A DNA stretch of 64,000 bases from a virus: the IMG/VR virus record IMGVR_UViG_3300032020_000845, positions 1 to 64,000 of that record. One strand, written 5' to 3'. Both the position numbers and the translations under genes were made by a program. The notes under the pieces were generated by a model. That model had not been told where the DNA came from, made no database searches, and saw nothing but the letters and a program-made list of their open reading frames with translations. Shown here piece after piece: positions 5,551-28,095 of the stretch; the stretch's first letter is position 1; each line of letters starts with the position of its first letter.

Positions 5551-5595
5551 TTGGAGTGAGGTAATGTATAGTTATAAAATTTTAAATTACAATAT

Positions 5596-5630
5596 AAGCG
5601 TTAGTTGTTAAGGCTAATGCTTTTATTTTT
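5596..5630 (+). terminator. Intrinsic terminator-like hairpin
   Basis: aagcgttag/ctaatgctt stem (one G-U pair) followed by a T-rich tract. Confidence 0.6.
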
Positions 5631-5649
5631 ATAAAATTAGGAGGGTTTT

Positions 5650-6900
5650 GTGAAAATTGTTTATTTGTCGGATTCTCCTCAAATATCAAGTGGGTATGGC
5701 AAGATAGGAAAAGATTTACTTACAAGATTAAGAGCAAAGGGACACCAAATTATTATATTAGGAGGATCATTAAATCCTGGTCCTTTTCAACCTCAACCTT
5801 GGAATGGAATGGTTTTTTATCCAATTCATGGGTATGGAAATATTGAACATATTCGTCATATTTTGAAAGAACACAAACCGGACGTGATGCTTATAAATTC
5901 AGATCCACGACATTTACGTCATATTTTTGAAATTGATAATGAAATTAGGGGTATATGTCCTTTAGCTTTTTATCATTTATGGGACGATGCTCCTTTTCCT
6001 AAATTTAATACTATGTATTATCGTTCTACAGATACTATTATTGCTGGGTCTAAGTTTATTTATGATTTGCTAAAAGCTAATTATACTGACACTCCTGTTT
6101 TTTATGCTCCTATGGGAATAGATACAAAAGTATACGATATTCTTCCGAAGGAAAAGGTTCAAGAATTTAAAGCAAGTATTTTTAAAAATCAACCACAATT
6201 TGTAAATAAATTTATTGTTGGTTATGTTGGTAGAAATATATTTCGCAAAAGATTGTTAGATCTTTATCGTATATTTGCGAAATTTGCAAAAGATAAAGAA
6301 GATGTTTTATTGTTTTTACACTCAAGTCCATTTGACCCTGAAGGAAGTAATCTATTGTATCTCCAAAGCACTTTATATCCAAACCTTCCAGTTGTTATAA
6401 GTGATCCTCGAGGTCAAGATGATTCTTATTTAACACATTTATATAATATGTTTGATGTGAGTATTAATATTGCTTTTGCAGAAGGTTTTGGATTACCTTT
6501 AGCAGAATCAATGGCTTGTGGAACTCCTTGTATTTCAGCAAAGACTGTTGGCCCAAGTGGATTAATTACAGAAGAAAATGGGTGGCTTGTAGAACCTAAA
6601 TGTATTGCGCAATTTGGAAGTAATCTTGTTCCATTTATTGATCAACGTTTTGTGTTGGATGAAGATGTACTTTCTGCATTAACAGAAGCGTATATGAAAC
6701 ATGTTTTTTCAGATTCAAATAAAACATTATTAGAAGAAAAAGCTTCTAAATGTAGACAATATATTGTTGAAAATTATTCTGCAGATGCAATGACGGAGAA
6801 AGTTGAAGAAGCTTTAAAAGAAACAGTTATAAATTGGAAAAAATATCCAAAATATACAGTTACAACATTTCCACAAGAAATAAGTGAAGGAGGTAAGTAA
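5650..6900 (+). CDS. Glycosyltransferase, GT-B fold (GT4-like)
   Basis: SGYG N-terminal motif, VGRNIFRK, EGFGLPLAESMACGTP. Confidence 0.9.
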   Translation: MKIVYLSDSPQISSGYGKIGKDLLTRLRAKGHQIIILGGSLNPGPFQPQPWNGMVFYPIHGYGNIEHIRHILKEHKPDVMLINSDPRHLRHIFEIDNEIRGICPLAFYHLWDDAPFPKFNTMYYRSTDTIIAGSKFIYDLLKANYTDTPVFYAPMGIDTKVYDILPKEKVQEFKASIFKNQPQFVNKFIVGYVGRNIFRKRLLDLYRIFAKFAKDKEDVLLFLHSSPFDPEGSNLLYLQSTLYPNLPVVISDPRGQDDSYLTHLYNMFDVSINIAFAEGFGLPLAESMACGTPCISAKTVGPSGLITEENGWLVEPKCIAQFGSNLVPFIDQRFVLDEDVLSALTEAYMKHVFSDSNKTLLEEKASKCRQYIVENYSADAMTEKVEEALKETVINWKKYPKYTVTTFPQEISEGGK

Positions 6901-7071
6901 AGATGAAAATTCAGGATTGTTTGATTATTTCCAGAAAAAAAGAAGAGATGAACCAATGCTTGAAATTGGTAAAAATGAGAATGCTTTAATTGAAAGAAAC
7001 ATATTTATATCAGAGCCTTTGACTTTTTGGCAAAGGGTGAAATATCTTCTTTTTAATGACTCTATTTGGAA
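6821..7071 (+). repeat. About 250-bp imperfect direct repeat, copy 1 (copy 2 at 7336..7590)
   Basis: Covers the 3' end of GT 5650, the RBS and the 5' part of the following small gene; diverged copy downstream. Confidence 0.9.
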
Positions 7072-7150
7072 GAACCCGCTAATACATAGGTATGCGGTTG
7101 TGATTAAACTGAAAAACTTTATCTACTCCTGGAGGCGTTTATGCTTATAG
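6903..7150 (+). pseudogene. Frameshifted paralog of 7418..7660
   Basis: RBS-led ATG 6903 reads MKIQDCLIISRKK; homology to 7418 continues in the -1 frame after the A7 run at 6935..6941. Confidence 0.7.
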
Positions 7151-7326
7151 CAAAAAATGCTTTATGCCCAAAGTGTAAAGTCTCAGTTGTTGAATCTTCA
7201 AAATTAATTGGAGAACTTTGGGAATTTCCCTGCTGGGAATGTCCGAAGTGTGGAGATATTTGGGATTCATTAAGTGATATAAAAGGGTGTAAAGTATTGA
7301 TAGGAACTAAAGGAGGTAAAAAATGA
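7141..7326 (+). CDS. Small zinc-ribbon protein
   Basis: Two CPKC motifs; GGAGG RBS. Confidence 0.65.
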   Translation: MLIAKNALCPKCKVSVVESSKLIGELWEFPCWECPKCGDIWDSLSDIKGCKVLIGTKGGKK

Positions 7327-7415
7327 ACAATAAAAAAACAGTTGTAAGTTGGAAAAAATATCCAAAATATACAATTACAACCTTTCCACAAGAAGTAAGT
7401 GAAGGAGGAAAGTAA
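7323..7415 (+). CDS. 30-aa chimeric junction ORF (GT 7657 N-terminus fused to GT 5650 C-terminus)
   Basis: MNNKKTVV-SWKKYPKYTITTFPQEVSEGGK; 35 bp at 7312..7346 identical to 7646..7680. Confidence 0.6.
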   Translation: MNNKKTVVSWKKYPKYTITTFPQEVSEGGK

Positions 7416-7590
7416 AAATGAAAATTCGAGATTGCTTGATTATTTCTCGAAAGAAAAGAGGGATAGATGAACCAATGCTTGAAATTGGTAAAAATGAGAA
7501 TGCTGTAATTGAAAGGAATATATCTATATCGAAACCTTTAACTTTTTGTCAAAGGTTGAAATATTTGCTTTTTAATGATCCTCTTTGGAA
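7336..7590 (+). repeat. Imperfect direct repeat, copy 2
   Basis: Homologous to 6821..7071. Confidence 0.9.
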
Positions 7591-7660
7591 AATTCGTAAA
7601 GCACCAGCAGTAATAATGAGTAACTTTAGACTTGCTCTCCCCATCGGAGGTAAAAAATGA
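7418..7660 (+). CDS. Hypothetical protein
   Basis: AAGGAGG RBS; intact paralog of 6903..7150. Confidence 0.6.
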   Translation: MKIRDCLIISRKKRGIDEPMLEIGKNENAVIERNISISKPLTFCQRLKYLLFNDPLWKIRKAPAVIMSNFRLALPIGGKK

Positions 7661-8817
7661 ACAATAAAAAAACAGTTGTATTCAGAGCAACAGTAGATAA
7701 TTTTTCAGGATATGGTACTGTAAGTAGAAATTTAATTCTTGCTTTTTATAAAAAGTATAAAGATTGTTTTAATATCGCTTTACAACCTCTTCAATGGTTA
7801 ACTGCTGGTGATATAGAAATTCCTCCAGAAGATTGTGAAATTCTTGATACTTTAAAAAGAAAACAATTTCCTCCAGAAGAGTCTATTCTTATTCATATGT
7901 CTATTCCTATTGAATTTCAATGGCCTCACAATTATAAAAAGTATTATGGATTTACAATGCTCGAAACTGATAAAATTACTCCTACATGGACTTATATTCT
8001 TAATCGTCTTGATGGTTGTTTGGTTCCAACTCCGTTTAACGTTAAGACTTTTATGGAAAGTGGTGTCAAAGTTCCTCTCACTATAATTCCATTTGGAGTT
8101 GATTTTAATATGTTTGCTTTGGACAAAGAACCTTTACTTTCAAAAGAAGACATTCCAACAAAGTTTAATTTCTTATGTTCTGGACAATGGACTTATGGAG
8201 ATCGTAAGAATATTGCTCAGACAATCTTGTCTTTCCTCAAGACATTTAGAACTAACAAGGAAGTTGGATTAATTGTGAAAGTATATAGTGTTGGAGCGGG
8301 AACCATGGACAAAATAAGTTGTACTGAAAAAATTAATAGTATTCGAAAACATTTAAAACTTAACCCAGACGAGGGTCCTAAAGTTTATTTAGTGCATGGA
8401 GCTTTGACAACAGAAGAAATGTCAAGATTGTATCATAATGCTCAAGTGTTTGTATTACCCAGTTCTGGAGAAGCTTTTGGAATGCCTTTAGTTGAAGCTC
8501 TTGCAAGCGGATTGCCTGTAATTACAACTGGTGGCACTGCTCCAAGTACCTTTTTGAACCCTGAGAAAACTACTCTTTTAAACTATAAATGGGTACAGTT
8601 AAGACCGGAGATGTATTGGCAACACGTATATGACCCAGGAATAATGGGTATGACGGAGCCTGATTGGAAGGATTTTGAGAAGCTAATGATAAGAGCTTAT
8701 GAAAAATATTCTATTGCAAAAAGTTTAGCCCTTGAACAGCGCCAGGAATTAATTGATCGACATTTAACATGGAATGAAAGTGCTGAGAGATTAGCATTGT
8801 TTTTGGATAATATATAA
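7657..8817 (+). CDS. Glycosyltransferase, GT-B fold (GT4-like)
   Basis: FSGYG, TMLETD, DRKN, SSGEAFGMPLVEALASGLPVI. Confidence 0.9.
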   Translation: MNNKKTVVFRATVDNFSGYGTVSRNLILAFYKKYKDCFNIALQPLQWLTAGDIEIPPEDCEILDTLKRKQFPPEESILIHMSIPIEFQWPHNYKKYYGFTMLETDKITPTWTYILNRLDGCLVPTPFNVKTFMESGVKVPLTIIPFGVDFNMFALDKEPLLSKEDIPTKFNFLCSGQWTYGDRKNIAQTILSFLKTFRTNKEVGLIVKVYSVGAGTMDKISCTEKINSIRKHLKLNPDEGPKVYLVHGALTTEEMSRLYHNAQVFVLPSSGEAFGMPLVEALASGLPVITTGGTAPSTFLNPEKTTLLNYKWVQLRPEMYWQHVYDPGIMGMTEPDWKDFEKLMIRAYEKYSIAKSLALEQRQELIDRHLTWNESAERLALFLDNI

Positions 8818-8827
8818 AAAAAATAAA

Positions 8828-9100
8828 ATGATAAAAAAATTTGTAAGAAAAATTTTATGTTGGATTGATTTTTGGTTTTATGCTCATTATGGTAAATCGT
8901 TGACTAAAATAAAGTATTTCAAAGAAGATGTACCAAATAAATATTGGGGTAAATGTTTACTTAATAATATAGAGATTGTCCCCTACCCTCTTATATTTGT
9001 TAGAGATCCTAAGACAATTGAAGTAACAGAACAAGACATAAAATGGGCAGAAGAGTTACTTCAGAAAAATGATTTTTTTAAAGAAGAAGAGGAAGGATAA
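8828..9100 (+). CDS. Hypothetical protein
   Basis: ORF fills the gap in the operon. Confidence 0.55.
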   Translation: MIKKFVRKILCWIDFWFYAHYGKSLTKIKYFKEDVPNKYWGKCLLNNIEIVPYPLIFVRDPKTIEVTEQDIKWAEELLQKNDFFKEEEEG

Positions 9101-9101
9101 A

Positions 9102-9326
9102 ATGAGTAAGACAATAGATGTGTGTGAGAACGTTTCTTTAACTAAGTTTTGGGGAGGCGATGAAGAAGGACAAATGGTTCAAATAACAGCTCCTGGAGAA
9201 TGTAGCCTTTCTTATGTTCAATTAACTCCAGAAGAAATGGATAGGTTATTAAATTGCTGGTTAAAATTTAAAAAAGAGTTTGGAAGAAATAAAAATAAAG
9301 ATAAAAATGACTATGTCAAAACTTAA
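9102..9326 (+). CDS. Hypothetical protein
   Basis: ATG 9102 after GGAAGGA RBS. Confidence 0.55.
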   Translation: MSKTIDVCENVSLTKFWGGDEEGQMVQITAPGECSLSYVQLTPEEMDRLLNCWLKFKKEFGRNKNKDKNDYVKT

Positions 9327-9498
9327 ATTAATTCACGTCTATTTTGATGATGGAATTTTCTGGATTCGTCTCTTTGGGAAAGGTATATCAGTTGTTGATA
9401 AGAAAAAGTACCCTCCTCTTTTTAGTGAAAGATTTGGATATCGTAAGGTAGTTAGAATTGGTAAGTGGGGTATTGAGTGGCTAAAACAAATATATTAA
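9307..9498 (+). CDS. Hypothetical protein
   Basis: ORF in operon; start uncertain. Confidence 0.5.
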   Translation: MTMSKLKLIHVYFDDGIFWIRLFGKGISVVDKKKYPPLFSERFGYRKVVRIGKWGIEWLKQIY

Positions 9499-9517
9499 GA
9501 AAAATAAAAAAAATTAA

Positions 9518-10459
9518 ATGATTAAAATCCTTTCAAAACTTTTTCATAGTTCATATCAAAAAAATTTATCTAAGATTCCCAACACTTCATATTATCATAT
9601 TGTTGATAAAGATAATAAAGTTTGGGATAATCAAACTTTACAACCTTCGAATGTTTTTGCTATCTCTTCCGAAGAAGCATTAGCTAAACAGGAAAACTTT
9701 GATTTATTGCTTGTTGGGAGACATCCAGAAATTTTATCTTCCTATGAAGAAGGTTTTCGAAATCTTCCACGAATATTCGTAGAACAAACTCATCCATATA
9801 ACGAATGGAACATTTCTCATTGGAAAGAAAATCGTGCGAAATTTGTAGATTATACTGTTTTCATTACTAAATCAAATCTCAATGCTTGGGGCATGAAAGA
9901 GGACGATAAAAATTCAGTAATTTATCATGCTATTGATGTAAATGAATTTCCATCTTATGCAGGAGGAGAAAAATTCATCATGACTACTTGTAACGAATTT
10001 CCGAATCGCGATTGGTGTTGTGGTTATTTACTTTGGGTTAATTCGGTATGGGGTTTAAAAGATGTGAGGGTTTATGGTTATGGTAATAGGAATATTGGAG
10101 AAGCTGACAAAGGAACAATGCCCAATAATGAAATAAAAAAATTGTTGTCTAAATGTGGGGTTTATTTTAATCCTGCGACAGCTTCTCCAATACCAGTATC
10201 TACACTAGAGGCGATGGCTGTAGGTACTCCTGTCGTTTCTACTTATAATTGTGGAATGAAAGATATTTTACAAGATGGAGTGAATTCTTTAACTGCAAAT
10301 GATGCTCCTACTTTAAGAAAGAAGATTATTGAAATGTTAGAGAATCCTGGAAGGGCTAAGAAGATAGGAGAGAAAGGAAAAGAACTTGTAAGAGATATAT
10401 TCCCCCCAGAAAGATTCATCTATAAATGGGCAAAAGTTTTTGAAAGAGTAGTAAGATGA
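9518..10459 (+). CDS. Glycosyltransferase, GT-B fold
   Basis: YFNP..SPIPVSTLEAMAVGTPVVS, IQDGVN-like motif, IGEKGKE..F.PERF. Confidence 0.85.
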   Translation: MIKILSKLFHSSYQKNLSKIPNTSYYHIVDKDNKVWDNQTLQPSNVFAISSEEALAKQENFDLLLVGRHPEILSSYEEGFRNLPRIFVEQTHPYNEWNISHWKENRAKFVDYTVFITKSNLNAWGMKEDDKNSVIYHAIDVNEFPSYAGGEKFIMTTCNEFPNRDWCCGYLLWVNSVWGLKDVRVYGYGNRNIGEADKGTMPNNEIKKLLSKCGVYFNPATASPIPVSTLEAMAVGTPVVSTYNCGMKDILQDGVNSLTANDAPTLRKKIIEMLENPGRAKKIGEKGKELVRDIFPPERFIYKWAKVFERVVR

Positions 10460-10665
10460 TAAACATTGATGTGATTAAATTTATTAAACATAATGCAATT
10501 AAAGATTATAATATTGGAAAGTTTCGAATTAAGAAAGGGGATAATATATTAAAAATTTGTTTTTCCGAAAATGACATACATAAAAGTAGAAAAGGAGTAT
10601 TACATTTAGATATATGGGGGTTAAAGTTAAGGCAATTAAAAAAGATTTTAGAGGAGGTAAAGTGA
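10456..10665 (+). CDS. Hypothetical protein
   Basis: ATGA-coupled to upstream gene. Confidence 0.5.
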   Translation: MINIDVIKFIKHNAIKDYNIGKFRIKKGDNILKICFSENDIHKSRKGVLHLDIWGLKLRQLKKILEEVK

Positions 10666-10874
10666 AATTTAAATTGAAAATCGAATTAGAGGCAGAAGCA
10701 GAAAGCGAAGAGAAACTTCGGCAGAATATAATGGAGCCTATGTTAGTTTTTGGGCAGGGAAAAATGACGAAAGAAGAGTTTTGGAATCGCTGGAAAAGGG
10801 AAAGGATTTGCGATTACGAATGGTATGGTTTATTTTTGACTGGTGATGATATACAAATAGAAGAAATTATATGA
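10662..10874 (+). CDS. Hypothetical protein
   Basis: GTG start after GAGGAGG. Confidence 0.55.
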   Translation: MKFKLKIELEAEAESEEKLRQNIMEPMLVFGQGKMTKEEFWNRWKRERICDYEWYGLFLTGDDIQIEEII

Positions 10875-10897
10875 GAAAAGTAAAATGAGGAGATAAG

Positions 10898-11419
10898 ATG
10901 AGTGAAGAAAAGATTAAAAAAGTTAATTTGACGTTTGAGGATTTACTTGACGATTATACAAATGTAAGTGTAAGAGCAGCACCAGGTGCAGATGTTGTGG
11001 TTGGTTCCTTTTACGATCTTCGTGTTTTCGAAGATGAAAGCATCGAAGAAATATGTTCAAATTATATAATTAATTGTTTGCCTGTGAATTTACATATGGT
11101 TGCAATAAAAGAATGGTGGCGTATTTTAAAACCAGGAGGTAAACTTTTTGTATTTTGTCCTGATGGAAATTTGATTTCAAAAAATTATGTAGATGGTTTA
11201 ATTAATATTATTGAATTTAATAAATTGTTATTTCAAAACAATAATCAAAACAGTATATACGCTGAATATGTACCTCGCTGTGCTTTTGATTTGCCAAGAT
11301 TAGTATTTTTATGTACATTTTATGGATTTGAGTTTGAGCAGACGGCTAAAAGACCTAATGCATATAAATATGAATTAGGGATAGAGTGTAAGAAAATCGA
11401 AACAAAATATCCTTATTAA
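10898..11419 (+). CDS. Class I SAM methyltransferase-like protein with degenerate motif I
   Basis: EWWRILKPGGKL; paralog of 12466 (shared RPNAY.Y.LG) but NLGCG is replaced by NLTFE. Confidence 0.7.
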   Translation: MSEEKIKKVNLTFEDLLDDYTNVSVRAAPGADVVVGSFYDLRVFEDESIEEICSNYIINCLPVNLHMVAIKEWWRILKPGGKLFVFCPDGNLISKNYVDGLINIIEFNKLLFQNNNQNSIYAEYVPRCAFDLPRLVFLCTFYGFEFEQTAKRPNAYKYELGIECKKIETKYPY

Positions 11420-11420
11420 A

Positions 11421-11486
11421 ATAGCAGAAGAGATTGTGGGAGAAAGAGCCGAAGGTAAATTGAGAGTCTCGGTTCTCTTCTGCTAT
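11421..11486 (+). other. Intergenic structured RNA / hairpin
   Basis: 13-bp perfect inverted repeat atagcagaagaga/tctcttctgctat with inner stem agagccga/tcggttct. Confidence 0.6.
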
Positions 11487-11503
11487 AAATGTTATAAATC
11501 TTT

Positions 11504-12469
11504 ATGAAAATTATTACCACTTGCCCATTAGAATGGGCAGATACTGGTGTTTACTGGTATCTTAAAAATTTGGAATTTGTTAGTAATACTAAACATATTC
11601 CTTGGAATCAATTTCAGATTCAAGATGCTGATTTGGTTATTTCTTGTGGTATAGGAGAAGTAGATTTACTAAAGTTGAAAAGACAAAAAGTAAAAGTTGG
11701 AGTACTTTTTTGCTCTCCTTTAGCTCAAGCGCATATTGTTCCTTCTAGTCCCAATGGGGATTTGGATTCATTATTAAGATATGTAAATATGTTAAAAAGT
11801 GGAGATATTGATTATGTATTTTTAGCATCTAAACAATTAGCAGAACTTTTTAAAAATGACAAAATTATTTATTTACCTCCTCCTTTGCATTGGGAAGGAT
11901 TTCCTATTACAAAAATAGAAGACAGAAAAGGAATTGGATATTTTGGCACAATGGATAGACATAAAAATTTGGCTACAATGTTTGGAGCAGTTAAACATTC
12001 TGGAATTGAAGATCCTTTTATTATAACAGGTTCGGAAAAGATATCTATGTGTTCTTTTTTCTCACATTTATTTGATATGAAGAATATTTTTGTGTATCCG
12101 AGATTTTCAAGACCTGCTCTTTTTGAAATAATGAGTAAGGTGAAACTGGGTATCCAAATAGGTTTTTCGGAGTCTTTTTCTTATACTGTGTGGGAATCAG
12201 CAATGTTGGGAGTTCCAAGTATTGTTAGTCCAAGTATATGGTGGTATTGTGATGATCCTTTTCTTAAAAGTTATTGTATGGTTCAAAATCTTGATGACCC
12301 AATTTTGATTGGAGAAAAAATTAAAAACCTTTATCTTCTTGCTTCTATGAATAAAGATTGTGATGGTTCTGCCATATATGTTGAATTATGTAAAGTAGCT
12401 AAAAAAGTTGCTATTGAAACGATGAATAAAAATAATCAAATGATTCAAGAAATTTTTGAAAAGTTATGA
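11504..12469 (+). CDS. Divergent GT-B glycosyltransferase
   Basis: HKN, SESFSYTVWESAMLGVPSIVS (E-x7-E motif); paralog of 13868. Confidence 0.75.
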   Translation: MKIITTCPLEWADTGVYWYLKNLEFVSNTKHIPWNQFQIQDADLVISCGIGEVDLLKLKRQKVKVGVLFCSPLAQAHIVPSSPNGDLDSLLRYVNMLKSGDIDYVFLASKQLAELFKNDKIIYLPPPLHWEGFPITKIEDRKGIGYFGTMDRHKNLATMFGAVKHSGIEDPFIITGSEKISMCSFFSHLFDMKNIFVYPRFSRPALFEIMSKVKLGIQIGFSESFSYTVWESAMLGVPSIVSPSIWWYCDDPFLKSYCMVQNLDDPILIGEKIKNLYLLASMNKDCDGSAIYVELCKVAKKVAIETMNKNNQMIQEIFEKL

Positions 12470-16518: not shown

Positions 16519-16542
16519 AATAAAATTACAAAGGAGAATTAA

Positions 16543-17283: not shown

Positions 17284-17284
17284 A

Positions 17285-20770: not shown

Positions 20771-20803
20771 AAGGAAATTGTGATTAACCAAAAAAAGAGG
20801 TAA

Positions 20804-21388
20804 ATGATATATTGTTCTGTTGAAGAATTTTTAAAAGCAATATTGGAAAAACCTTTTGAAGAAGGTTGGGATGAGAACGGAGAGCCTCCTTTTTGTAAGT
20901 TATGTCAAGAAGTTTTTGAGATAATAAAACCCTTTAATACTTTTTTAGAAATAGGTCTAGGTTTTGGAGATTTTTCATTATATTTATTAAGCCAGCACAA
21001 AAAAGTTGAAATGTTGGATGTTAAAGAAGATACTTTGATATCTATGAAAAAGATTTGTGAAGAAAGAAATTATAATTATGTTTTTCATCATCAAGATATA
21101 ACCAATCCAAAGATATCTAAAATCTATGATGTGGTAATTGCAATTGAGGTTATTGAACACATTAAGGATTACAAAAAAGCTATTTTTAATATGATGAAAT
21201 TAGCGAAGCATAAAGTTATTTTGACTACCCCAGTTTTAGGAAGTTTTTATAGTTTAGATCATAAACATGTTTTTTCAGAATCTGATTTTAAATTTATTAA
21301 TAAGGCCTATAAAATTAAACGTATTATAACAAAGAAGAAAGATATTTCAACTAGTAAAAGAGCTTTTTTAATTGAGATTAATATTTAA
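20804..21388 (+). CDS. Class I SAM methyltransferase
   Basis: LEIGLGFG, YDVVIAIEVIEH, ILTTP. Confidence 0.85.
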   Translation: MIYCSVEEFLKAILEKPFEEGWDENGEPPFCKLCQEVFEIIKPFNTFLEIGLGFGDFSLYLLSQHKKVEMLDVKEDTLISMKKICEERNYNYVFHHQDITNPKISKIYDVVIAIEVIEHIKDYKKAIFNMMKLAKHKVILTTPVLGSFYSLDHKHVFSESDFKFINKAYKIKRIITKKKDISTSKRAFLIEINI

Positions 21389-21397
21389 GGAGAAAAT

Positions 21398-22651
21398 ATG
21401 GGTAAGTTTAAGTTGCTTGAAAAAGCTTCGATGGAATTTGAAAAAAAGTTAGGTTTAGTTTTTCCTGAACCTGAACCTGAGATTAAAGAAATCCCTAAAA
21501 ATAAAAGACCTTCGGATAGAAAAAGAATACCTGTTTGTTGGCCCTCAATTACTGCTTTAGAAAAAGAATATGTTTTTAGAGTTGTTAATGATGGTTGGGT
21601 TTCTTCTTTAGGTCCTGAAGTTAAAAAATTTGAAAAAGAATATGCAGAAAAGTTTGGAGTTAAATATGCAATATCTTGTACTAATGGAACCGAAGCTCTT
21701 CATTTAGCAGTTGCTTCTTTAGGTATCGGTCCTGGAGATGAAGTTATTCTTCCAACATTTACAATGGTTGCCTCTATAAATTCTGTTCTTTATATGGGAG
21801 CAACTCCTATATTAGTAGATGCTGATGATCATTTAAATATAGATGTAAAACAAATTGAGCAAAAAATAACTAAAAATACTAAAGCCATTATGCCAGTACA
21901 TATTTATGGGTGCCCTTGTGATATGACTGAAATAATGAGATTGGCTAAAAAGTATAATTTGAGGGTGATTGAGGATGTTGCAGAAAGTCATGGCTCATTT
22001 TATAAAGGAAAAATTACAGGGAGTATCGGAGATGTTGGGTGTTATTCTTTTTATGCAAATAAAATCATCACTTGTGGAGAAGGTGGGATGTTAACTACTA
22101 ATAATGAGGAACTTGCAGAAAGAATTAGGACTTTAATGAACCACGCTTTTAGTCTCGAGCGTCATTTTTGCCATAGACTCGTGGGTTTTAATTGTAGAAT
22201 GACTGCTCTGCAAGCGGCTCTTGGCAGAGCTCAATTAAAAAGATTTGATAAGATATTGGCGAAAAAAGAACAATTACGCAATAGATATATTCAAAATTTA
22301 CGTATTTCCCCAAGAATTTATATTCCTAATAGGGATCCAGAAGAAGGAATAAAATCTGTTTGTTGGATGTTTGGAGTGCAAATAATTGAAGATTATTTTC
22401 CTGTTAAAGGGAATATAAAAAATAAAGTTAGAAATTTATTAGCTAAAAGAGGAATAGAAACAAGAAACTTTTTTGTTCCAATGCATTTACAACCCATTCA
22501 ATATAAAAGATTTGAAGGGCAAAGATATCCTATATCTGAATCATTAATGGAGTCTGGATTTTACTTGCCGTCTGCAGTGGATTTAAATGTGGATGAAATA
22601 GATTATGTTTGTGAGCATTTATTAGATATTGTGGAAGGAATAAAGATATGA
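21398..22651 (+). CDS. DegT/DnrJ/EryC1/StrS PLP sugar aminotransferase (perosamine synthetase-like)
   Basis: NGTEALHLA, GPGDEVI, PVHIYG, IEDVAES, SFYANKIITCGEGG. Confidence 0.92.
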   Translation: MGKFKLLEKASMEFEKKLGLVFPEPEPEIKEIPKNKRPSDRKRIPVCWPSITALEKEYVFRVVNDGWVSSLGPEVKKFEKEYAEKFGVKYAISCTNGTEALHLAVASLGIGPGDEVILPTFTMVASINSVLYMGATPILVDADDHLNIDVKQIEQKITKNTKAIMPVHIYGCPCDMTEIMRLAKKYNLRVIEDVAESHGSFYKGKITGSIGDVGCYSFYANKIITCGEGGMLTTNNEELAERIRTLMNHAFSLERHFCHRLVGFNCRMTALQAALGRAQLKRFDKILAKKEQLRNRYIQNLRISPRIYIPNRDPEEGIKSVCWMFGVQIIEDYFPVKGNIKNKVRNLLAKRGIETRNFFVPMHLQPIQYKRFEGQRYPISESLMESGFYLPSAVDLNVDEIDYVCEHLLDIVEGIKI

Positions 22652-23367
22652 TTGAATTATTAGATCCTTCTCTTAAAATAAATTTAGATTATATTGCTAT
22701 TGATTACTTATTAGTTGGTATTTGTGAAAAAAGTCATGGTTTGGAGGGGGCGGAGGGTCTTATGAAATCTCATTATATGCTAGATTACCCTTGGCTTTTT
22801 TTGCATACTCCAATAACGCCAAAAAGTAAAGTTCTTGATGCTGGGTGCGGCAGGGGAGTTTTTCAGATTTTTTTAGCTAATAAATGTGAATTATATACTG
22901 TAGATAGAAGGGGGTTTCATATCGAAGAATGGTCAAAAGAAAAAGAAAAACAATTCAATGTAAAATTAAATTTTTCTTGTCAAGATTTAAAAAATACAAA
23001 TTATGAAGATAATTTTTTCGATCATATAGTGTCTTGTAGTTCTTTGGAACATAATTCATTTGAGGATGCAAAACTTATATTTAAAGAATTAGAAAGAATT
23101 TTAAAGCCTGGAGGAAGAATTGTTTTTACCTTAGTTGCTTGGAGAGAATTTAAGGTTTTATATGGAAATGCGAAAGACCCTATTATTATGTGTTATACTG
23201 ATGAAAAAATAAAAGAATTGATTGAAGGAACAAATTTAAAGTTATTGAGTGATGAAAATAATTTTGACCAATTTGAAGATCTTATTAAGAAGTTTTGCAA
23301 AGAATATCCAATGTATGGGGCTGATTATATACCAGTTGGAGTAGTTTTTCAAAAGGATAATGTATGA
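22648..23367 (+). CDS. Class I SAM methyltransferase
   Basis: VLDAGCGRG, FDHIVSCSSLEH, RILKPGG. Confidence 0.9.
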   Translation: MIELLDPSLKINLDYIAIDYLLVGICEKSHGLEGAEGLMKSHYMLDYPWLFLHTPITPKSKVLDAGCGRGVFQIFLANKCELYTVDRRGFHIEEWSKEKEKQFNVKLNFSCQDLKNTNYEDNFFDHIVSCSSLEHNSFEDAKLIFKELERILKPGGRIVFTLVAWREFKVLYGNAKDPIIMCYTDEKIKELIEGTNLKLLSDENNFDQFEDLIKKFCKEYPMYGADYIPVGVVFQKDNV

Positions 23368-24308
23368 AAATACTATTAATTATAAAAACAGATAATTCTT
23401 TTTCTAATGGTATTCGCATATGGGAATCTTTAGTACGTTTAGGACATGAAGTACATGCCGTTTCTTTTGGAAAATCAATAGAGGAATATTGTTCAAAGTA
23501 TAAAAAATTTAATCCAGATTTTGTATTTCAAATAGGAATAGGCCCTCTAAAGGGTGATCTTAGTATGCAACAAGGATTGAAAGATTTGGAAGCAAAACTG
23601 GTATTGTGGTACCCAGATGCTTATTGGTTGTTTCAAGAGCCATCAAGATCTTATTTTTTAGATGCTTTTAATATATTTGATTTATTTCTTGTTACCATGA
23701 GAGGACATGTAGAAGTTGCTATTCCTTATACAAATAAAGTTGTTTGGGCTCCTCATTATTTTGATTCAACTTTTTTTAAAACAGATAAAGTTTTGGAACA
23801 AGAAAATGATGTTATTTTTGTAGGAGGTAAAACTGAAGCATCTCCTCAGAGAGAAGAATATTTAAAAGATGTTGAAAAGGAAGGCTATAAGTTAGAAGTT
23901 ATTGGGTATGGTTTTAATATTAATAACAAAAGAACTCATGCTGATTGGAATGGGGAGCATATTGCTTCCGTTTATAAAAATTCTAAAATAGGGTTGAATA
24001 TAATTTCAGGAGGTATACTAAATTGCGATTTGCAATTTTCTGCAAGAGTATATCAAACAATGGGATGTGGATGTTTTCTTTTAACTGAATATATTCCAAA
24101 TATTGAAGAACTTTTTACTCCAAAAAAGCACCTTGATGTATTTTATACTAAAGAAGAAATGTTAGAAAAGATTGATTATTATTTAAAACATCCTGAAATT
24201 AGAGAAGAAGTTGCAAAACAAGGACAAGAGGAAGTTTTGAAAAATCATGATATTGACATTCGCATAAACCAATATTTAGAAATAATTAGAAAGGAATTAC
24301 ACATATGA
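23364..24308 (+). CDS. CgeB-like glycosyltransferase
   Basis: DVIFVG, YKNSKIGLN, SARVYQTMGCGCFLLT. Confidence 0.85.
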   Translation: MKILLIIKTDNSFSNGIRIWESLVRLGHEVHAVSFGKSIEEYCSKYKKFNPDFVFQIGIGPLKGDLSMQQGLKDLEAKLVLWYPDAYWLFQEPSRSYFLDAFNIFDLFLVTMRGHVEVAIPYTNKVVWAPHYFDSTFFKTDKVLEQENDVIFVGGKTEASPQREEYLKDVEKEGYKLEVIGYGFNINNKRTHADWNGEHIASVYKNSKIGLNIISGGILNCDLQFSARVYQTMGCGCFLLTEYIPNIEELFTPKKHLDVFYTKEEMLEKIDYYLKHPEIREEVAKQGQEEVLKNHDIDIRINQYLEIIRKELHI

Positions 24309-25258
24309 GAATCTTGGTAATAGCAAAAAGATTTAAAAGTACTAATGGAAGTTTAAATGCATATCAAAGTGGTATTCGGATTTCTGAAGAGTTAAAAAGA
24401 CAAAAACATGAAGTTGCTACTTTTTTCTATAATTCTAAAATAGCTGATATAAAGAAAAATTATTTGGAATTTCAACCGCATTTTGTTTTTCAGACTGGTG
24501 GAGTAAATAGAAGTTTTGATATTGCAAAATGTTTAAAAAGTTTAGGCGCAAAAATTGTGTTGTGGCATCCAGATGCTTATTTTCTTTTGCAAAAAGATTC
24601 TAAAAAGTTATTTTTAGAAGTATTTGACATAGTTGATTTGTTTATAACTACTATGAAAGGGCATGTAGAAATTGCAAAACCTTATACTGATAAAGTAGTT
24701 TGGAGTCCTCACTTTTTTGATCATACTTATTATAAATCTGATAAAAATTTATCAAAAGCGCATGACGTAATTTTTGTAGGAAATAAAACTCCTTGTTCTC
24801 TTCAACGTAAAGGATATTTTGAAAGTATAGTTAAAGACAATTATAAGTTAGCTATTGTAGGTTGGGGATTTGACCGGCTTGGAGGTGTTATTAACTATGG
24901 CGGGGAATTTATTGCAGATTATTACAAAAGTTCTAAAATTGGTTTAAATATTATTTCTGGAGAAGACCTGAATTATAATTTACAATTTTCAGTTCGTGTT
25001 TATCAAGTGATGGGTTGTGGGTGTTTTTTACTTACAGAATATATTCCAGGAATTGAGGAACTTTTTATTCTTAAAAAACATCTTGATGTGTTTCATACTA
25101 AAGAGGAAATGTTAGAGAAAATTAAGTATTATTTGGAACATGAAGAAGAAAGAAATAAAATTGCAGCGCAGGGACAAAAAGAAGTTTTTGATAAATACAC
25201 AATTGACAAAAGTGTTCATAGATACCTTTCTATTATTCAGGAGAGATTGGAGTTATGA
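24305..25258 (+). CDS. CgeB-like glycosyltransferase (tandem paralog of 23364)
   Basis: Same motifs; high similarity to the preceding gene. Confidence 0.85.
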   Translation: MRILVIAKRFKSTNGSLNAYQSGIRISEELKRQKHEVATFFYNSKIADIKKNYLEFQPHFVFQTGGVNRSFDIAKCLKSLGAKIVLWHPDAYFLLQKDSKKLFLEVFDIVDLFITTMKGHVEIAKPYTDKVVWSPHFFDHTYYKSDKNLSKAHDVIFVGNKTPCSLQRKGYFESIVKDNYKLAIVGWGFDRLGGVINYGGEFIADYYKSSKIGLNIISGEDLNYNLQFSVRVYQVMGCGCFLLTEYIPGIEELFILKKHLDVFHTKEEMLEKIKYYLEHEEERNKIAAQGQKEVFDKYTIDKSVHRYLSIIQERLEL

Positions 25259-26289
25259 AAATTGGAACAATAGGATATTCTAATGCTTCTGGATTAGGGG
25301 TAATGTTGAAATTTTTTAGGAAACATCTCGAGATGGATAGTCAACTTGTTATAGATTGGGAAGCAAAAGGAATGAATTTAGAAGACTTAGGTTGTAAGTA
25401 TGTTGTGACTTCTAAGGAATATCCGAGTATAGAAACTCTTGAGGAGTTTATAAGTTTTAAACCCGATGTAGCTTTGATAATAGAGTATCCATTTTGTTGG
25501 GACTATTTAAAAATTTTAAAAGAAAAAGGAATTAAGATTGTTTATATTCCTATGTTGGATAGTGTGGGATTAAATGTTCTTGAACTATGTAAAGATTTTG
25601 TAGATTTGTGGCTTTGTGTTACTAAACATAGTTATAAACTAATTCAATTAAAAGGATGGAAATGTTGTTATTTACCATATCCTGTTGATACAAATTATTT
25701 CAAATTTGAAAATAGAAAATTATGTGAAAAGAATTTAACATTTCTTCATAATGCTGGATATTGTAATCCAAGAAAGGGTACAGATTTAGTTTTTGCTGCT
25801 TACTTAAAATTGAAAGAAAAAATTCCTAATATATCCTTGATTGTGAATTCTCAAGTACCTATGCCTTTTGTGGAAGGCCCCGATATTAGAATACATAATA
25901 CTAAAGAGTTATCTGATTTATATAGGGGAGGTAATATTTATTTAGCTCCTTCAAGAAAAGAAGGATTAGGACTTCCTATTTATGAAGCAATGGCATATGG
26001 TTTTCCTGTGATTACAACAAATGCTCCTCCAATGAATGAAGTGGTAACTGATGAAAGGCTGTTAGTAAAAGTTGAAAATTTTGGGGAAGGTTTGTTTAGT
26101 ATAATAGGAGGAATTGCTTTTGAACCAAGTTTAGATAATTTGGTTTTAAAAATGGAACATATAGTAAATGCTGATTTAGATGCTATATCGAAAGCAAGTA
26201 GAAAAGTTATTGAAGAAAAATTTTCCTGGAATATTTTGAAATCAGAATATTTGAATGTTTTTCAAAAAGTAGTTGATGGGAAATTATGA
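25255..26289 (+). CDS. Glycosyltransferase, GT-B fold (GT4-like)
   Basis: RKGTD, PSRKEGLGLPIYEAMAYGFPVITTNAPPMNE. Confidence 0.9.
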   Translation: MKIGTIGYSNASGLGVMLKFFRKHLEMDSQLVIDWEAKGMNLEDLGCKYVVTSKEYPSIETLEEFISFKPDVALIIEYPFCWDYLKILKEKGIKIVYIPMLDSVGLNVLELCKDFVDLWLCVTKHSYKLIQLKGWKCCYLPYPVDTNYFKFENRKLCEKNLTFLHNAGYCNPRKGTDLVFAAYLKLKEKIPNISLIVNSQVPMPFVEGPDIRIHNTKELSDLYRGGNIYLAPSRKEGLGLPIYEAMAYGFPVITTNAPPMNEVVTDERLLVKVENFGEGLFSIIGGIAFEPSLDNLVLKMEHIVNADLDAISKASRKVIEEKFSWNILKSEYLNVFQKVVDGKL

Positions 26290-27275
26290 AAATATTAGTA
26301 TTTGCTTATTGTAATAAACCTTATCAAAATGGTCTTTTAATTGCTAGAGAAATGAAAACTCTTGGGCATGAAGTTTTAGTTAAATGTTTGGTTGAAAAAG
26401 AAAGGTGTCTACCATATTCTCATCCTTTAAAACCTGGATCTGCTAAATATGTATATGAACAGCAGATGTTTGAATTTGCGAAACAGTTTAACCCCGATTA
26501 TTTATTTGTGACTGGTACAGGGGTAGAGCCTAAAGAGTTTTTTGAAGGAATCTCTAAATTAGGAATAAAGTTAGTATTGTGGAATGCGGACGCTTATGTT
26601 CCAGATAAAGATAAAGGGTATTGGGATAGATATAAAGGGGTGTTTGATTTGATTATAACTTCTGTGGAAGGTATGGCAAAAGTTTTAGAGGATTATGCGA
26701 AGAGTGTTACATTTTTACCTCAGTATTATGATAATGTTTATTATAAGCCAACTATTAAAAGGTTAGATGCAGAACATGAAATTTATGACATATGTTTTAT
26801 TGGAAATACTCAAAGGGGACGGGGAATTTTTGCAAGAGAGAATTGTATTAAAGCTCTAAACAAGTTTTGTAAAGTAACAGTTTTTGGGAATGTATCTGGG
26901 GTTTCTTCTAAGGCAGAACTTTATGGTACAGAGATGGCTAATGTTTATAGGCAGTCTAAAATTACATTTGATACCCTGCACGTAATAAAAAAGGATTTAG
27001 GTTGGAAAATTTCGGATAGAATTTTTAAAGCTATGGGTTGTGGCTGTTTTTTCATTTGTCCTCCAATGCAGGGACTTGAACAATTTTTTACTCCGGGAAA
27101 ACATTTAGTAATTTATGATGGAAGTGTTGAAGATTTAGAATTAAAAGTTAAATATTATTTAGAATATGAAGATGAAAGAGAAAAAATAGCAAAACGTGGT
27201 TATGAAGAAATTATGAAAAATCATACTATTGGTGTTAGAGTAAATCAATATTTGGATGTGATGGGAAGAATATGA
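26286..27275 (+). CDS. CgeB-like glycosyltransferase (paralog of 12942)
   Basis: QYYD..YYKPTI.RLD..EIY..CFIG, SDRIFKAMGCG. Confidence 0.85.
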   Translation: MKILVFAYCNKPYQNGLLIAREMKTLGHEVLVKCLVEKERCLPYSHPLKPGSAKYVYEQQMFEFAKQFNPDYLFVTGTGVEPKEFFEGISKLGIKLVLWNADAYVPDKDKGYWDRYKGVFDLIITSVEGMAKVLEDYAKSVTFLPQYYDNVYYKPTIKRLDAEHEIYDICFIGNTQRGRGIFARENCIKALNKFCKVTVFGNVSGVSSKAELYGTEMANVYRQSKITFDTLHVIKKDLGWKISDRIFKAMGCGCFFICPPMQGLEQFFTPGKHLVIYDGSVEDLELKVKYYLEYEDEREKIAKRGYEEIMKNHTIGVRVNQYLDVMGRI

Positions 27276-28045
27276 AATTATTTTCGAGTTTTACGAAAGT
27301 TATAGAAATTATTCCTCCTTCGGGTAAAGATATGAACTCGTTTTTTAAGAGTATTAAGGTATTGAAAGAAACAGGTGTTAAGGTGGTTAGTGTTGTATCT
27401 AATCCTATGGCACAACCAAAATTGCCCGCTTTGTATATTGCTCAATATTTGATATCAGAAGGATTTAAAACAATTGTTCATTATCCTCTTTCTGGAAGGT
27501 CTGAAGTTATAGTGAAATCTGATATGCTTCAGGCAGTATCAATGGGAGTAGATGTTATGCTTATTTTATCTGGAGATCCTCATGGAATAACGTTTGAATC
27601 TGGTATGAATATATTAGATGCTATTAAATTTGTAAGATCGCATAATATTTTAGTTGGGGTCGCCGCAAACCCTAATAAAATAAACCATGAGCATTTAAAA
27701 GCCAAAGTAGATGCTGGTGCAAATTATTTTCAAACTCAACCAGTGTTTACAATAGATTGTGCATTAAAGTTTTTGAAAGAAATAGAACAATACAATTTAC
27801 CTGTGTTAATAGGTATAGTGGTTCCAAAATCTAAAAAACATCTAGAAAGATTATTACAAATTCCTGGAGTGGTTATACCAAAAGAATATTTGAAAAGTTT
27901 TGAACAAATAAATACAGAAGAAGATTTTATGACAAATGCTTTTGCGCGCGCGAATAAAATTATTGAAACGATTAAAGAAATGACAGCTGGAGTTTATTTG
28001 TCTATGCCTCAGTCTATGTTTAGATATATAGGAGAGAAAATATAA
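27272..28045 (+). CDS. metF: Methylenetetrahydrofolate reductase family protein
   Basis: EIIPP, NPMA.P, LSGDP, GVAANPN, KVDAGANYFQTQPVF, PGVVIP. Confidence 0.8.
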   Translation: MKLFSSFTKVIEIIPPSGKDMNSFFKSIKVLKETGVKVVSVVSNPMAQPKLPALYIAQYLISEGFKTIVHYPLSGRSEVIVKSDMLQAVSMGVDVMLILSGDPHGITFESGMNILDAIKFVRSHNILVGVAANPNKINHEHLKAKVDAGANYFQTQPVFTIDCALKFLKEIEQYNLPVLIGIVVPKSKKHLERLLQIPGVVIPKEYLKSFEQINTEEDFMTNAFARANKIIETIKEMTAGVYLSMPQSMFRYIGEKI

Positions 28046-28071
28046 AAATAAAACAAAAGAGTTGGGGTTTA

Positions 28072-28095
28072 TTTGTGTATAATATATAAATGATA
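28072..28095 (+). promoter_or_regulatory. Conserved phage promoter motif
   Basis: tttgtgtataatatataaatgata, identical at 30074..30097; RBS follows. Confidence 0.75.

Follow-up and report, generated by a model that had tools for sequence, protein, structure and literature searches.

Freeman and colleagues are said to have described virion glycosylation in the mycobacteriophages Che8, Corndog and Myrna (2023, in Cell Host Microbe). According to one account (PMC12619734), mycobacteriophages use a few glycosyltransferases (GTs) to modify capsid and tail-tube subunits at C-termini rich in Ser/Thr. Glycans on virion proteins are also made by giant viruses: those of Vp54 in chlorovirus PBCV-1 by A064R/A061L and others, and those of the fibrils in Mimivirus (review PMC9614988). 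Large clusters of LPS or cell-wall genes are carried by the cyanomyoviruses P-SSM2, S-SCSM1 and S-SCSM2R (13 GTs), and their target is not experimentally known (PMC12801897). A cultured phage with a comparable gene set is Flavobacterium phage vB_FspM_immuto (Immutovirus, MW353176), for which a literature search returned nothing on glycosylation.

The window analyzed here, a stretch of 64,000 nucleotides, is the start of a 107-kb IMG/VR contig (55% complete) of an uncultured large myophage, whose host is probably a Gram-negative bacterium of the FCB group. It contains a 22-kb island (5650-28045) of about two dozen enzymes, all co-oriented, with the base composition of the remaining phage sequence; all features described below lie on the plus strand. 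Pfam searches revealed 12 GT-B GTs, seven methyltransferase-fold genes, one DegT aminotransferase, a split methionine synthase (MetE) and an MTHFR-like gene. The numbers of GTs, methyltransferases (two of them FkbM) and DegT enzymes are identical to those given in an earlier sequence-only reading, and its placement of the block in one orientation directly behind the baseplate and fibre genes was borne out by the gene map, Pfam and PHROG; the MetE and MTHFR-like genes were absent from its list and are added here. It had also seen no transmembrane segment in these enzymes, and indeed none has a 19-residue hydropathy window ≥1.6. A consensus scan detected a terminator-like hairpin (5596-5622; an 11-pair stem, then a T run) in the gap separating the fibre genes from the first GT, although the overall number of such sites was not above chance. 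The 3′ boundary is marked by the first copy (28071-28089) of a promoter-like motif (extended -10, TTTGTGTATAATATAT). The motif occurs seven times in the contig, not once within 1-28045, and makes its first appearance at 28074.

Like the mycobacteriophages, this phage encodes soluble GTs beside structural genes; there, the phage's own virion proteins are decorated in the cytoplasm. The locus differs from theirs in having 12 GTs, 6-7 methyltransferases, an aminotransferase and methyl-cycle genes, and in its candidate acceptors, which are Ser-Gly-Ser (SGS) motifs dispersed over the distal tail proteins that this myophage encodes. No homology to the mycobacteriophage GTs was seen; the search of phages matched those of Flavobacterium, Microcystis, Streptomyces and Rhodococcus. 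With giant viruses the locus shares cytoplasmic GTs, sugar aminotransferases and sugar methyltransferases, and, as proposed here, the attachment of methylated amino-sugar glycans to virion proteins independently of any cellular secretory pathway. Giant viruses differ in their eukaryotic hosts, in the N-linkage of chlorovirus glycans at atypical sequons, and in encoding NDP-sugar synthesis enzymes, which the window phage lacks. The cyanomyoviruses are likewise large lytic myophages with at least 10 GTs plus sugar-modifying enzymes. Their clusters contain NDP-sugar epimerases, KdsA/KdsB, PgaA and others, and have been interpreted as modifying the host surface or DNA, whereas the island has no such genes, forms a single contiguous block behind the fibres and has a candidate acceptor motif. 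Given the published 13 GTs of a cyanomyovirus (PMC12801897) and the larger sets of giant viruses, the earlier statement that phages usually have only a few GTs is dated. Phage immuto carries homologues of the GT pair at 5650 and 7657 (29% identity, 93% query coverage), followed by a GT2, a WecE-type aminotransferase, a methyltransferase, a mannosyltransferase, an acetyltransferase, an epimerase and another GT. Its distal tail proteins are SGS-enriched as well, but its set is smaller (∼5 GTs and one methyltransferase) and lies ∼30 kb from the tail genes, and the ∼75 kb of its genome that were examined showed neither MetE nor MTHFR.

In all relatives found (G001, G002, G003, L013 and L113), the island is flanked by the fibre genes on one side and a helicase on the other, so that its tail-adjacent position, for which the sequence-only reading had proposed a synteny search, is fixed. 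These relatives conserve the three GTs nearest to the fibres, and the rest of the island varies among them. The first core GT (5650-6900; GT4, GT-B; PF00534 6e-16, PF13439) is 72-74% identical in G001/G002 and 42% in G003. The second (7657-8817; GT4, GT-B; PF13692, PF00534) is the best-conserved enzyme of the island (78% in G001/G002, 45% in G003), and its family has 52 members, all metagenomic; GTs of the two types were paired in 51 of 80 metagenome loci. Among solved structures, the second core GT is best matched by chlorovirus NY-2A B736L (3oy2, E 2.2e-12), a remote match over ∼190 residues to an enzyme whose acceptor is not assigned (PMC9614988). The third (9518-10459), a GT-B C-terminal domain (PF00534 2.1e-15), shows 70% identity in G001/G002 and 38% in G003. 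Small ORFs are interspersed among the three: 6884-7150, which has no Pfam match, and its 63% identical paralogue 7418-7660; a CxxC...CxxC zinc-ribbon ORF (7141-7326); and three ORFs at 8828-9498, of which 8828-9100 has no Pfam match. At 7332-7415, the 3′-terminal stretch of the first GT gene recurs as an 84-nt copy.

Nine further GTs follow. Four are CgeB-like (PF13524): 12942-13871 (2.1e-25), which is 38-41% identical to its three paralogues, 23364-24308, 24305-25258 and 26286-27275. The others are GT-B enzymes at 11504-12469 (PF00534 3.7e-4, below the Pfam cut-off, and 32% identical to the next), 13868-14803 (2.4e-6), 14796-15800 (1e-5; 25.6 bits, just under the cut-off of 26.4), 17773-18834 (3.4e-20) and, flanked by CgeB-like GTs, 25255-26289. 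The relation of the four to CgeB of the Bacillus spore crust is one of family membership only, with different biology, and no close homology to CgeB itself was found in PDB or as an NCBIfam equivalog. CgeB works in the cytoplasm of the mother cell, and neither a lipid carrier nor a flippase takes part in its action on the proteinaceous surface layer.

The seven methyltransferases of the sequence-only reading hold as a count of folds, but one of them appears inactive. In 10898-11419, which matches only the C-terminal part of PF08241, the Gly-rich SAM motif I is lost (NLTF where its paralogues read NLGCG in the alignment), and the protein is probably non-catalytic; it is kept in L003 with 58-63% identity. 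Its short paralogues, 12466-12945 (159 aa, motif LNLGCG) and 17285-17776 (PF08241), have motif I intact. The two FkbM-type enzymes, 15787-16518 (PF05050 2.2e-13) and 16543-17283 (5.3e-11), both with a weak RfbT match, are a tandem duplicate (57% identity) that is single-copy in G002. Two further class I SAM methyltransferases are located at 20804-21388 (PF13649, PF13847) and 22648-23367 (PF08241 6.4e-16); the latter is translationally coupled to the DegT gene, has generic PDB relatives and is present in two copies in G002. The DegT-family sugar aminotransferase (21398-22651; PF01041, 369.6 bits) is closest to GDP-perosamine synthases and LegC (PDB 3bn1, 3dr4 and 3dr7 at E ∼1e-90), and the LegC and PseC models match it under their cut-offs. 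The cobalamin-independent MetE (18825-20770) is split into a catalytic half (18825-19793) and an N-type half (19787-20770), with PF01717 at 3e-88 and NF003317 at 447.5 bits against a cut-off of 406. Its catalytic half is 80% identical to proteins of Ignavibacteria MAGs, that is, of bacteria of the probable host class, and the split MetE is absent in G001-G003. The last gene of the island encodes the MTHFR-like protein (27272-28045; 257 aa; PF02219 71.2 bits, cut-off 24); G002 has a 64% identical counterpart in the corresponding place.

Family searches of the 107-kb contig detected no NTP_transferase, Epimerase/dehydratase, Bac_transf, WecA/MraY, Wzx or SAM synthetase, and searches of the 90%-complete relative G002 detected no phosphoglycosyl transferase, Wzx, NTP-transferase, SDR dehydratase or MetK. 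By hydropathy, through which alone Wzy and ABC transporters were covered, neither contains an ORF with >4 TM-like segments. The absence of flippase, Und-P transferase, NDP-sugar pyrophosphorylase and dehydratase, originally noted for the window, thus extends contig-wide and to G002, and supports the view of a large, soluble and self-contained glycan and methylation factory without a lipid-carrier or export part.

Immediately upstream of the island are the genes of the distal tail. A baseplate J-like wedge protein (57-1067; PF04865 4.8e-10; phrog_6, baseplate wedge, 5.8e-26), whose 5′ end is cut by the contig start and which is 470 aa long in relatives, is followed by a 470-aa protein (1085-2497) with no Pfam or PHROG match and just 10 homologues among 5.8 billion proteins. 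The latter contains seven SGS sites, against 0.49 in shuffles, and five are kept in its homologues, which makes it our strongest candidate acceptor; its predicted structure (pLDDT 30.6) gave no usable model of site exposure. Three fibre or receptor-binding-like paralogues (2514-3545, 3555-4577 and 4588-5505; 46-50% mutual identity) share a common N-terminus, have variable C-termini and carry eight SGS sites in total. The AF2 model of 3555-4577 (pLDDT 67) has CBM-like beta-sandwich domains, matched by Foldseek to CBM22/CBM4 and the lactococcal phage 1358 RBP, and its SGS sites fall in loops or at loop-strand junctions.

SGS is ∼10-fold over-represented in the distal tail proteins and nearly missing elsewhere. 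In the window phage, the tail proteins (1,794 aa) hold 16 sites and everything else (32,052 aa) only 9, and its giant proteins have 1-2 in 967-1,873 aa. Over four related phages, 102 sites were observed against 8.3 expected, many of them homologous across relatives and hence not independent events; the tripeptides SGT, TGS, TGT, NGS and SGN were at ∼1x in the same phages. The sites use 12 different codon combinations, and in G002 they cluster in the sheath, the wedge, baseplate J, a 469-aa protein and the fibres. A second phage group shares with immuto homologues of the first two GTs. Among 841 ORFs near distant homologues of the GT pair, only the distal tail proteins named above and a ∼512-aa family were SGS-enriched; this family, encoded in the second group after the baseplate wedge gene, is not homologous to the 470-aa family. 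The distal tail block of immuto has 33 SGS against 7.0 expected (4.7-fold), and the long tail fibres of T4, as a control, 4 against 2.3. New here is thus an SGS over-representation in distal tail proteins that tracks the GT pair in unrelated protein families, and it indirectly supports the virion as the glycan target.

The soluble enzyme block behind the fibres, together with the SGS-studded tail proteins, makes coating of the tail tip by a methylated sugar chain the most likely explanation. We propose, with a probability of roughly 0.55, that the island O-glycosylates the phage's own tail tip in the cytoplasm with a perosamine-like methylated glycan, a target suggested by gene position and motif statistics. 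The hairpin that parts the fibre genes from the first GT was counted against this proposal with regard to co-transcription.

Solubility and a GT-B or GT-A fold are also the norm for peripheral O-antigen GTs. The island could accordingly remodel the host envelope, its GTs building a methylated amino-sugar glycan on host undecaprenyl-phosphate and borrowing the host initiating transferase, flippase or ABC exporter, and ligase, so that LPS or capsule is altered during infection, e.g. to block superinfection or to keep progeny from sticking to debris. O-antigen loci typically feature perosamine, FkbM/RfbT-type methylation and WecE/DegT enzymes, the immuto cluster lies among early or lysis-type genes, and cyanomyoviruses with up to 13 GTs and 22 cell-wall genes were so read by their authors (PMC12801897). 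We consider this explanation unlikely, because no initiating transferase, flippase, polymerase, ligase or polytopic membrane protein was found, the 90%-complete relative included, all lineages keep the island behind the fibre genes, and the SGS enrichment that tracks the GT pair is left unexplained. Furthermore, among 201 genomes of the probable host class none has an orthologue of a core GT or of a CgeB-like GT, which also argues against recent copying of the island from an LPS or capsule locus of the host.

Mycobacterial methylglucose and methylmannose polysaccharides (MGLP, MMP) are polymethylated and cytoplasmic, and soluble GT-B enzymes with SAM methyltransferases and no export genes would fit a product of that kind. 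Such a free or lipid-free oligo- or polysaccharide, or glycosylation of non-virion proteins (host proteins, the phage giant proteins or its secreted dockerin lipoproteins), is compatible with the fact that the sequence itself names no acceptor. We regard it as quite improbable, since it offers no reason for the conserved fibre-adjacent position or the SGS signal, and the giant proteins are nearly SGS-free. DNA hypermodification, in which the GTs and methyltransferases would put glycans on modified phage bases to evade restriction, is very unlikely: phage GTs adding diverse glycans to DNA are known (bioRxiv 10.1101/2023.12.21.572611), and the first notes on this phage list a putative 7-deazaguanine operon, but a search confined to the thymidylate-synthase/hydroxymethylase families found none in four contigs and so no route to a hydroxymethyl acceptor, the 12 GTs, aminotransferase and six methyltransferases are far above known DNA glycosylation sets, and the island belongs to the structural region and not to the replication region led by the promoter motif.

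From the earlier interpretation, a soluble, tail-adjacent factory with the virion as its target is therefore retained, the last through the indirect SGS evidence; its O-methylated glycan is kept as one methylated on O or N, and DNA is an unlikely substrate. In the proposed tail-tip glycosylation, the GTs at 5650, 7657 and probably 9518 would prime an O-linked glycan on the serine of exposed SGS motifs, and the nine variable GTs, the four CgeB-like ones among them, would extend and branch it. The DegT enzyme would convert a host-made GDP-4-keto-6-deoxy sugar to a perosamine-like GDP-4-amino-4,6-dideoxyhexose, and the six intact methyltransferases, two of them FkbM/RfbT-like, would methylate the sugars. 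MTHFR and the split MetE would recycle homocysteine to methionine, from which host MetK could keep SAM available under a heavy methyl demand. The predicted targets are the baseplate periphery, the 470-aa protein and the three receptor-binding paralogues, with the sheath as a lesser one. If this is correct, the likely benefit to the phage would be a protective or recognition-modulating coat on its host-recognition apparatus.

The window covers bases 1-64000 of a linear virus record of 106,979 bases, which CheckV scored as 55% complete. The + strand carries all genes of note, and the GC content is 28-35% throughout, the glycosyltransferase (GT) island at 5650-28045 included. Genes for a baseplate J/wedge protein, a family A DNA polymerase, and DnaB-type and SNF2-type helicases were found on the contig, and the close relative G002 has one for a tail sheath; judged by these genes, the source is a large myophage. 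The island gave no match to isolate phages at the DNA level with megablast, and neither did the 470-aa protein encoded at 1085-2497 when compared with phages by tblastn. Four post-baseplate proteins could be assigned to no family by Pfam or PHROG. Relatives were recovered by searches with the 470-aa protein, baseplate J (57-1067) and the core GT (gene 7657, named, like all island genes here, by its start position). All of these relatives share the order baseplate J, 470-aa protein, fibre paralogues (2514-5505 in the window), GT island and helicase. The island begins 145 nt past the last fibre gene, and its placement beside the structural module, proposed in the sequence-only reading, was borne out by synteny in five relatives.

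That reading had also listed about 12 GTs, seven SAM methyltransferases (two of them FkbM) and one DegT aminotransferase, and Pfam recovered this inventory gene for gene. Ten of the 12 GT-B enzymes scored above the Pfam cut-off for the GT-B C-terminal nucleotide-sugar binding domain (Glycos_transf_1, Glyco_trans_1_4 or Glyco_trans_1_2); GT 14796 was marginal (25.6 bits against a cut-off of 26.4), and GT 11504, a paralogue of 13868 at 32% identity, fell under the cut-off at 20.5 bits. Four GTs are PF13524 CgeB-like paralogues with mutual identities of 30-52%. Of the seven genes with a methyltransferase fold, three are short and paralogous, two belong to the FkbM type and share 57% identity, and the other two are ordinary class I genes. 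SAM motif I or a full-domain match was detected in 12466, 17285, 15787, 16543, 20804 and 22648. In the ORF at 10898-11419 the glycine-rich SAM motif I is gone (NLGCG is replaced by NLTF, with a deletion), and the same change is present in its orthologue in the related locus L003. Hence all seven proteins have the fold, one of them lacks the motif, and six island methyltransferases look active. The motif-less ORF is kept at 58-63% identity in a relative, and may encode a non-catalytic partner. The single DegT aminotransferase matched PF01041 with 369.6 bits over residues 51-408. A hydropathy scan revealed no hydrophobic window fitting a membrane span in any of the enzymes, in agreement with the earlier view that they are without membrane segments. 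Solved relatives of the FkbM and CgeB-like proteins were not found.

Part of the island was built by internal duplication, since an all-against-all BLAST comparison revealed paralogues. A local duplication is also visible: 84 nt at 7332-7415 repeat the 3′ end of the GT gene at 5650-6900 with 92% identity. This copy adjoins two small ORFs, 6884-7150 and 7418-7660, which are paralogues with 63% identity; an ORF for a 61-aa CxxC...CxxC zinc ribbon (7141-7326) is located between them.

A 16-nt promoter-like motif of the extended -10 type, TTTGTGTATAATATAT, occurs seven times in the contig and never in 1-28045. The copies are intergenic and stand ahead of non-structural genes, at window positions 28074, 30076, 48143 and 55071 and at contig positions 101014, 105180 and 105689. 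As the first of them is placed 26 nt past the last stop codon of the island, the island groups with the tail genes and not with the replication genes. A terminator-like hairpin is present between the fibres and the first GT. A generic scan of 1-20000 for sigma-70 promoters and terminators gave nothing above chance.

Functions that would be needed for sugar-nucleotide synthesis and glycan export were sought by model searches over the whole contig (G000) and the related contigs G001, G002 and G003, of which G002 is 90% complete, with control genomes that gave matches in the NTP_transferase, Bac_transf, WecA/MraY, Wzx and SAM synthetase searches. Initiating phosphoglycosyl transferases (WbaP/Bac_transf, PF02397; WecA/MraY, PF00953) were found in none of the four contigs, although the controls were positive, and the Wzx family (PF01943) was likewise absent by model search; the earlier statement that flippase and Und-P transferase genes are missing can thus be extended to the whole contig and three relatives. 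In G000 and G002, every ORF has at most four TM-like segments; this family-independent screen, the one that covered Wzy_C and ABC functions, agrees with the reported lack of a polymerase (Wzy) and gave no candidate for a ligase or ABC permease. The absence of NDP-sugar pyrophosphorylases and dehydratases also held: NTP_transferase (PF00483) is absent from all four contigs, and the epimerase/dehydratase family PF01370 from G000 and G002, while four PF01370 copies are present in the G003 island. Since pyrophosphorylase and dehydratase genes are absent, the sugar nucleotides and the keto intermediate must be supplied by the host. With respect to the target, remodelling of the host envelope through host carrier and export enzymes is a possible, less likely reading. 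The virion had been named as the most plausible target and DNA as a possible one; the virion is still the more probable one, and DNA modification is unlikely, for the thymidylate-synthase/hydroxymethylase family PF00303 (ThyA-like, hydroxymethyl-pyrimidine acceptor) is absent from G000-G003.

The sugar chemistry could be approached from the DegT protein. Its best equivalog was the LegC family (319.7 bits against a cut-off of 420), and no score exceeded the cut-off of any substrate-fixing equivalog (LegC, PseC, ArnB, WecE, DesI). Its closest solved structures are GDP-perosamine synthases (E about 1e-90). GDP-perosamine synthases and the LegC family use GDP-linked 4-keto-6-deoxy sugars; because the protein is under all equivalog cut-offs, we infer rather than assign such a substrate. 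The FkbM genes gave weak, sub-threshold matches to Vibrio cholerae RfbT, the perosamine O-methyltransferase, which for these genes is a lead only. The identification of 22648 as a TylM1/DesVI-type sugar N,N-dimethyltransferase was considered and found unsupported, its PDB matches being to generic methyltransferases only. For the core GT, the best relative with a solved structure is chlorovirus NY-2A B736L, whose best-bound ligand is GDP-mannose and whose acceptor is unknown (PMC9614988).

The island also carries genes for methyl supply. The catalytic half of a split MetE (18825-19793) scored 447.5 bits with NF003317, above the equivalog cut-off of 406, and the second half matched Meth_synt_1 at 1.4e-25. 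Genomes of Ignavibacteria and Zixibacteria also carry a split MetE pair, with the N-type half first; in the phage (18825-20770) the catalytic half comes first. For the catalytic half, identity reaches 80% with proteins of uncultured Ignavibacteria and is 77-78% with those of Zixibacteria; the N-type half shares only 44-46% with its counterparts in the two groups. Possibly, the pair was captured in two steps. It is absent from all relatives, and therefore a recent gain; a scan of viral contigs with the catalytic half gave no match, and for MetE a recent capture from the host is accepted on these comparisons. The gene that closes the island is a member of the MTHFR family (PF02219, 71.2 bits against a cut-off of 24), with all NCBIfam equivalogs far under their cut-offs. 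The SAM synthetase family was not found on the contig or the three relatives. The MTHFR-like protein and MetE would fit a regeneration of methionine for SAM, for which MetK and SAH breakdown by the host are needed.

Comparison of the relatives revealed a constant and a changing part of the island. G002 shows the same gene order as the window. The MetE pair and ORF 10898 are missing from it, the MTHFR-like gene is kept, FkbM is a single gene, and the 22648 methyltransferase is present twice. In the more distant contig G003 and in locus L013, baseplate J and the core GT are ∼45% identical to those of the window, and homologues of 5650, 7657, 9518, a CgeB-like GT and 25255 are retained. The rest of the G003 island consists of GT2s, a PseB/CapD-type dehydratase, SDRs, an FdtA/RmlC-like isomerase, two acetyltransferases, a distant DegT and a homing endonuclease; no membrane parts were found in it. 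The endonuclease gene is of the NUMOD3 type (L009:5792-6367, - strand) and adjoins the PseB/CapD-type dehydratase gene. With the core kept and the rest differing among relatives, the island is a conserved site in which the fibre-proximal core is constant and the tailoring part varies, and it appears to evolve much like an O-antigen locus. G001, the 48-kb fragment that holds L003, ends inside the GT island and carries the IMG/VR label 'provirus', which may have been caused by host-like GT genes and not by true flanking host DNA.

Collinearity with a single bacterial LPS or capsule locus, which the sequence-only reading had set as a test, was not found within the genomes searched. In 201 genomes of the likely host class, the matches of core GT 7657 were no more than partial and at motif level (best E 3e-11), and the CgeB-like 26286 had no match at E 1e-25 or better in genomes of this class; on these searches, a recent host capture of the two genes was rejected. 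The 7657 family counts 52 members in 5.8 billion proteins, all of them metagenomic and unnamed. One homologue of the 470-aa protein was located in a MAG labelled Cloacimonetes. The host is likely a sediment bacterium of the FCB group, which we regard as a lead and not as a result.

A candidate acceptor signal was detected in the tail proteins. Five tail proteins of the window phage contain 16 Ser-Gly-Ser (SGS) tripeptides in 1,794 residues, and the other 142 ORFs contain nine in 32,052 residues. In 21 distal-tail proteins of four related phages, 102 SGS were observed against 8.3 expected from composition, and the control tripeptides SGT, TGS, TGT, NGS and SGN occurred at 0.7-1.8 times expectation in the same proteins. 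In distal tail proteins strict SGS is enriched ∼10-fold, and in the rest of the proteome it is nearly absent; the enrichment was noted in window 1085-5505 and in loci L003, L004, L005, L017, L113 and L203. An Ile directly follows the motif at 30 of the 102 sites. The 16 sites of the window are encoded by 12 codon combinations, which rules out a DNA-level origin of the signal and places the constraint on the protein. Five sites of the 470-aa protein are conserved among its homologues, and the remaining ones are lineage-specific. The near-complete G002 proteome has 46 SGS in 50,907 residues, concentrated in the fibres, the sheath, a baseplate wedge protein, baseplate J and a 469-aa protein. No SGS is present in the GTs and methyltransferases. 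T4 long tail fibres, analyzed as a control, have four SGS against 2.3 expected. Contig L020, without the GT, has few SGS; it is 37% complete, and so weak as a negative control. In an AF2 model of the fibre paralogue at 3555-4577 (pLDDT 67), the SGS sites lie in loops or loop-strand junctions of beta-sandwich domains similar to carbohydrate-binding modules and to the receptor-binding protein of a lactococcal phage. For the 470-aa protein, the model (pLDDT 30.6) was too poor to judge SGS exposure.

A metagenome scan with a core-GT profile recovered 80 loci, 51 of which hold both a 5650-type and a 7657-type GT (the GT pair), side by side in every locus whose map was inspected. Nine of the 841 ORFs around these loci were significantly enriched in SGS, all being tail proteins of the clade or members of a ∼512-aa family, and 14 control tripeptides gave zero or one enriched ORF each in the same 841 ORFs. 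The 512-aa family, encoded directly after the baseplate wedge gene (phrog_219), has no homologue in cultured phages. As hhalign profile comparison revealed no homology between it and the 470-aa family, SGS enrichment arose at least twice. A second widespread phage group (L157, L120, L131, L133 and L170) has the order PD-(D/E)XK nuclease, GT pair, three small genes, ∼550-aa protein, wedge gene and ∼512-aa SGS protein, with variable sugar genes upstream (UDP-glucose dehydrogenase-like, DegT and radical SAM). A third instance of the enrichment comes from the cultured Flavobacterium phage vB_FspM_immuto, in which the GT pair (29% identity) is accompanied by a smaller glyco cluster; the post-wedge tail block of this phage contains 33 SGS against 7.0 expected, and 25 kb of its non-structural genes contain zero. 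The predicted GT pair is spread over several uncultured myophage lineages and one cultured phage.

From position, content and motif statistics, we propose, with a probability of about 0.55, that the island serves the cytoplasmic glycosylation of the phage's own distal tail. The conserved GTs would prime the glycan at Ser-Gly-Ser in the cytoplasm, and the attached glycan would be methylated and bear amino sugars. A more general version is tentative: the GT pair might constitute a phage-borne general cytoplasmic O-glycosylation system that recognises SGS on distal tail proteins in their folded state and primes a glycan specific to the lineage, here heavily methylated and fed by phage methionine regeneration.

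Glycosylation of virions by virus-encoded enzymes is established in giant viruses (PMC9614988) and, by phage enzymes, in mycobacteriophages (PMC12619734); GT-rich clusters have been published for cyanomyoviruses (PMC12801897). Phage-encoded soluble GTs within or beside the structural module are shared with the mycobacteriophage type. The mycobacteriophage glycans are attached to capsid or tail-tube subunits at Ser/Thr-rich C-terminal extensions, whereas the candidate acceptor here is dispersed SGS in distal tail proteins. Unusual features are the size of the island, its built-in methyl-donor module, the GT pair common to several phage lineages and the discrete candidate sequon.

The SGS signal, together with a cultured Flavobacterium phage that has the same enzyme pair, makes the idea directly testable. 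If it is true, this would be a new protein glycosylation system of the bacterial world with its own sequon, the variable island would be an 'O-antigen locus of the virion', and a compact soluble toolkit for sequon-directed O-glycosylation would be possible for glyco-engineering. Some puzzling 'LPS gene clusters' of large phages would be explained, and protein sequence alone would be insufficient to read tail-fibre function and host range. A virion 'glycocalyx' locus, similar to an O-antigen locus in size and variability, may then exist in tailed phages of Gram-negative environmental bacteria; it would come with a methyl-donor supply of its own and be directed at the end of the particle that recognises the host.
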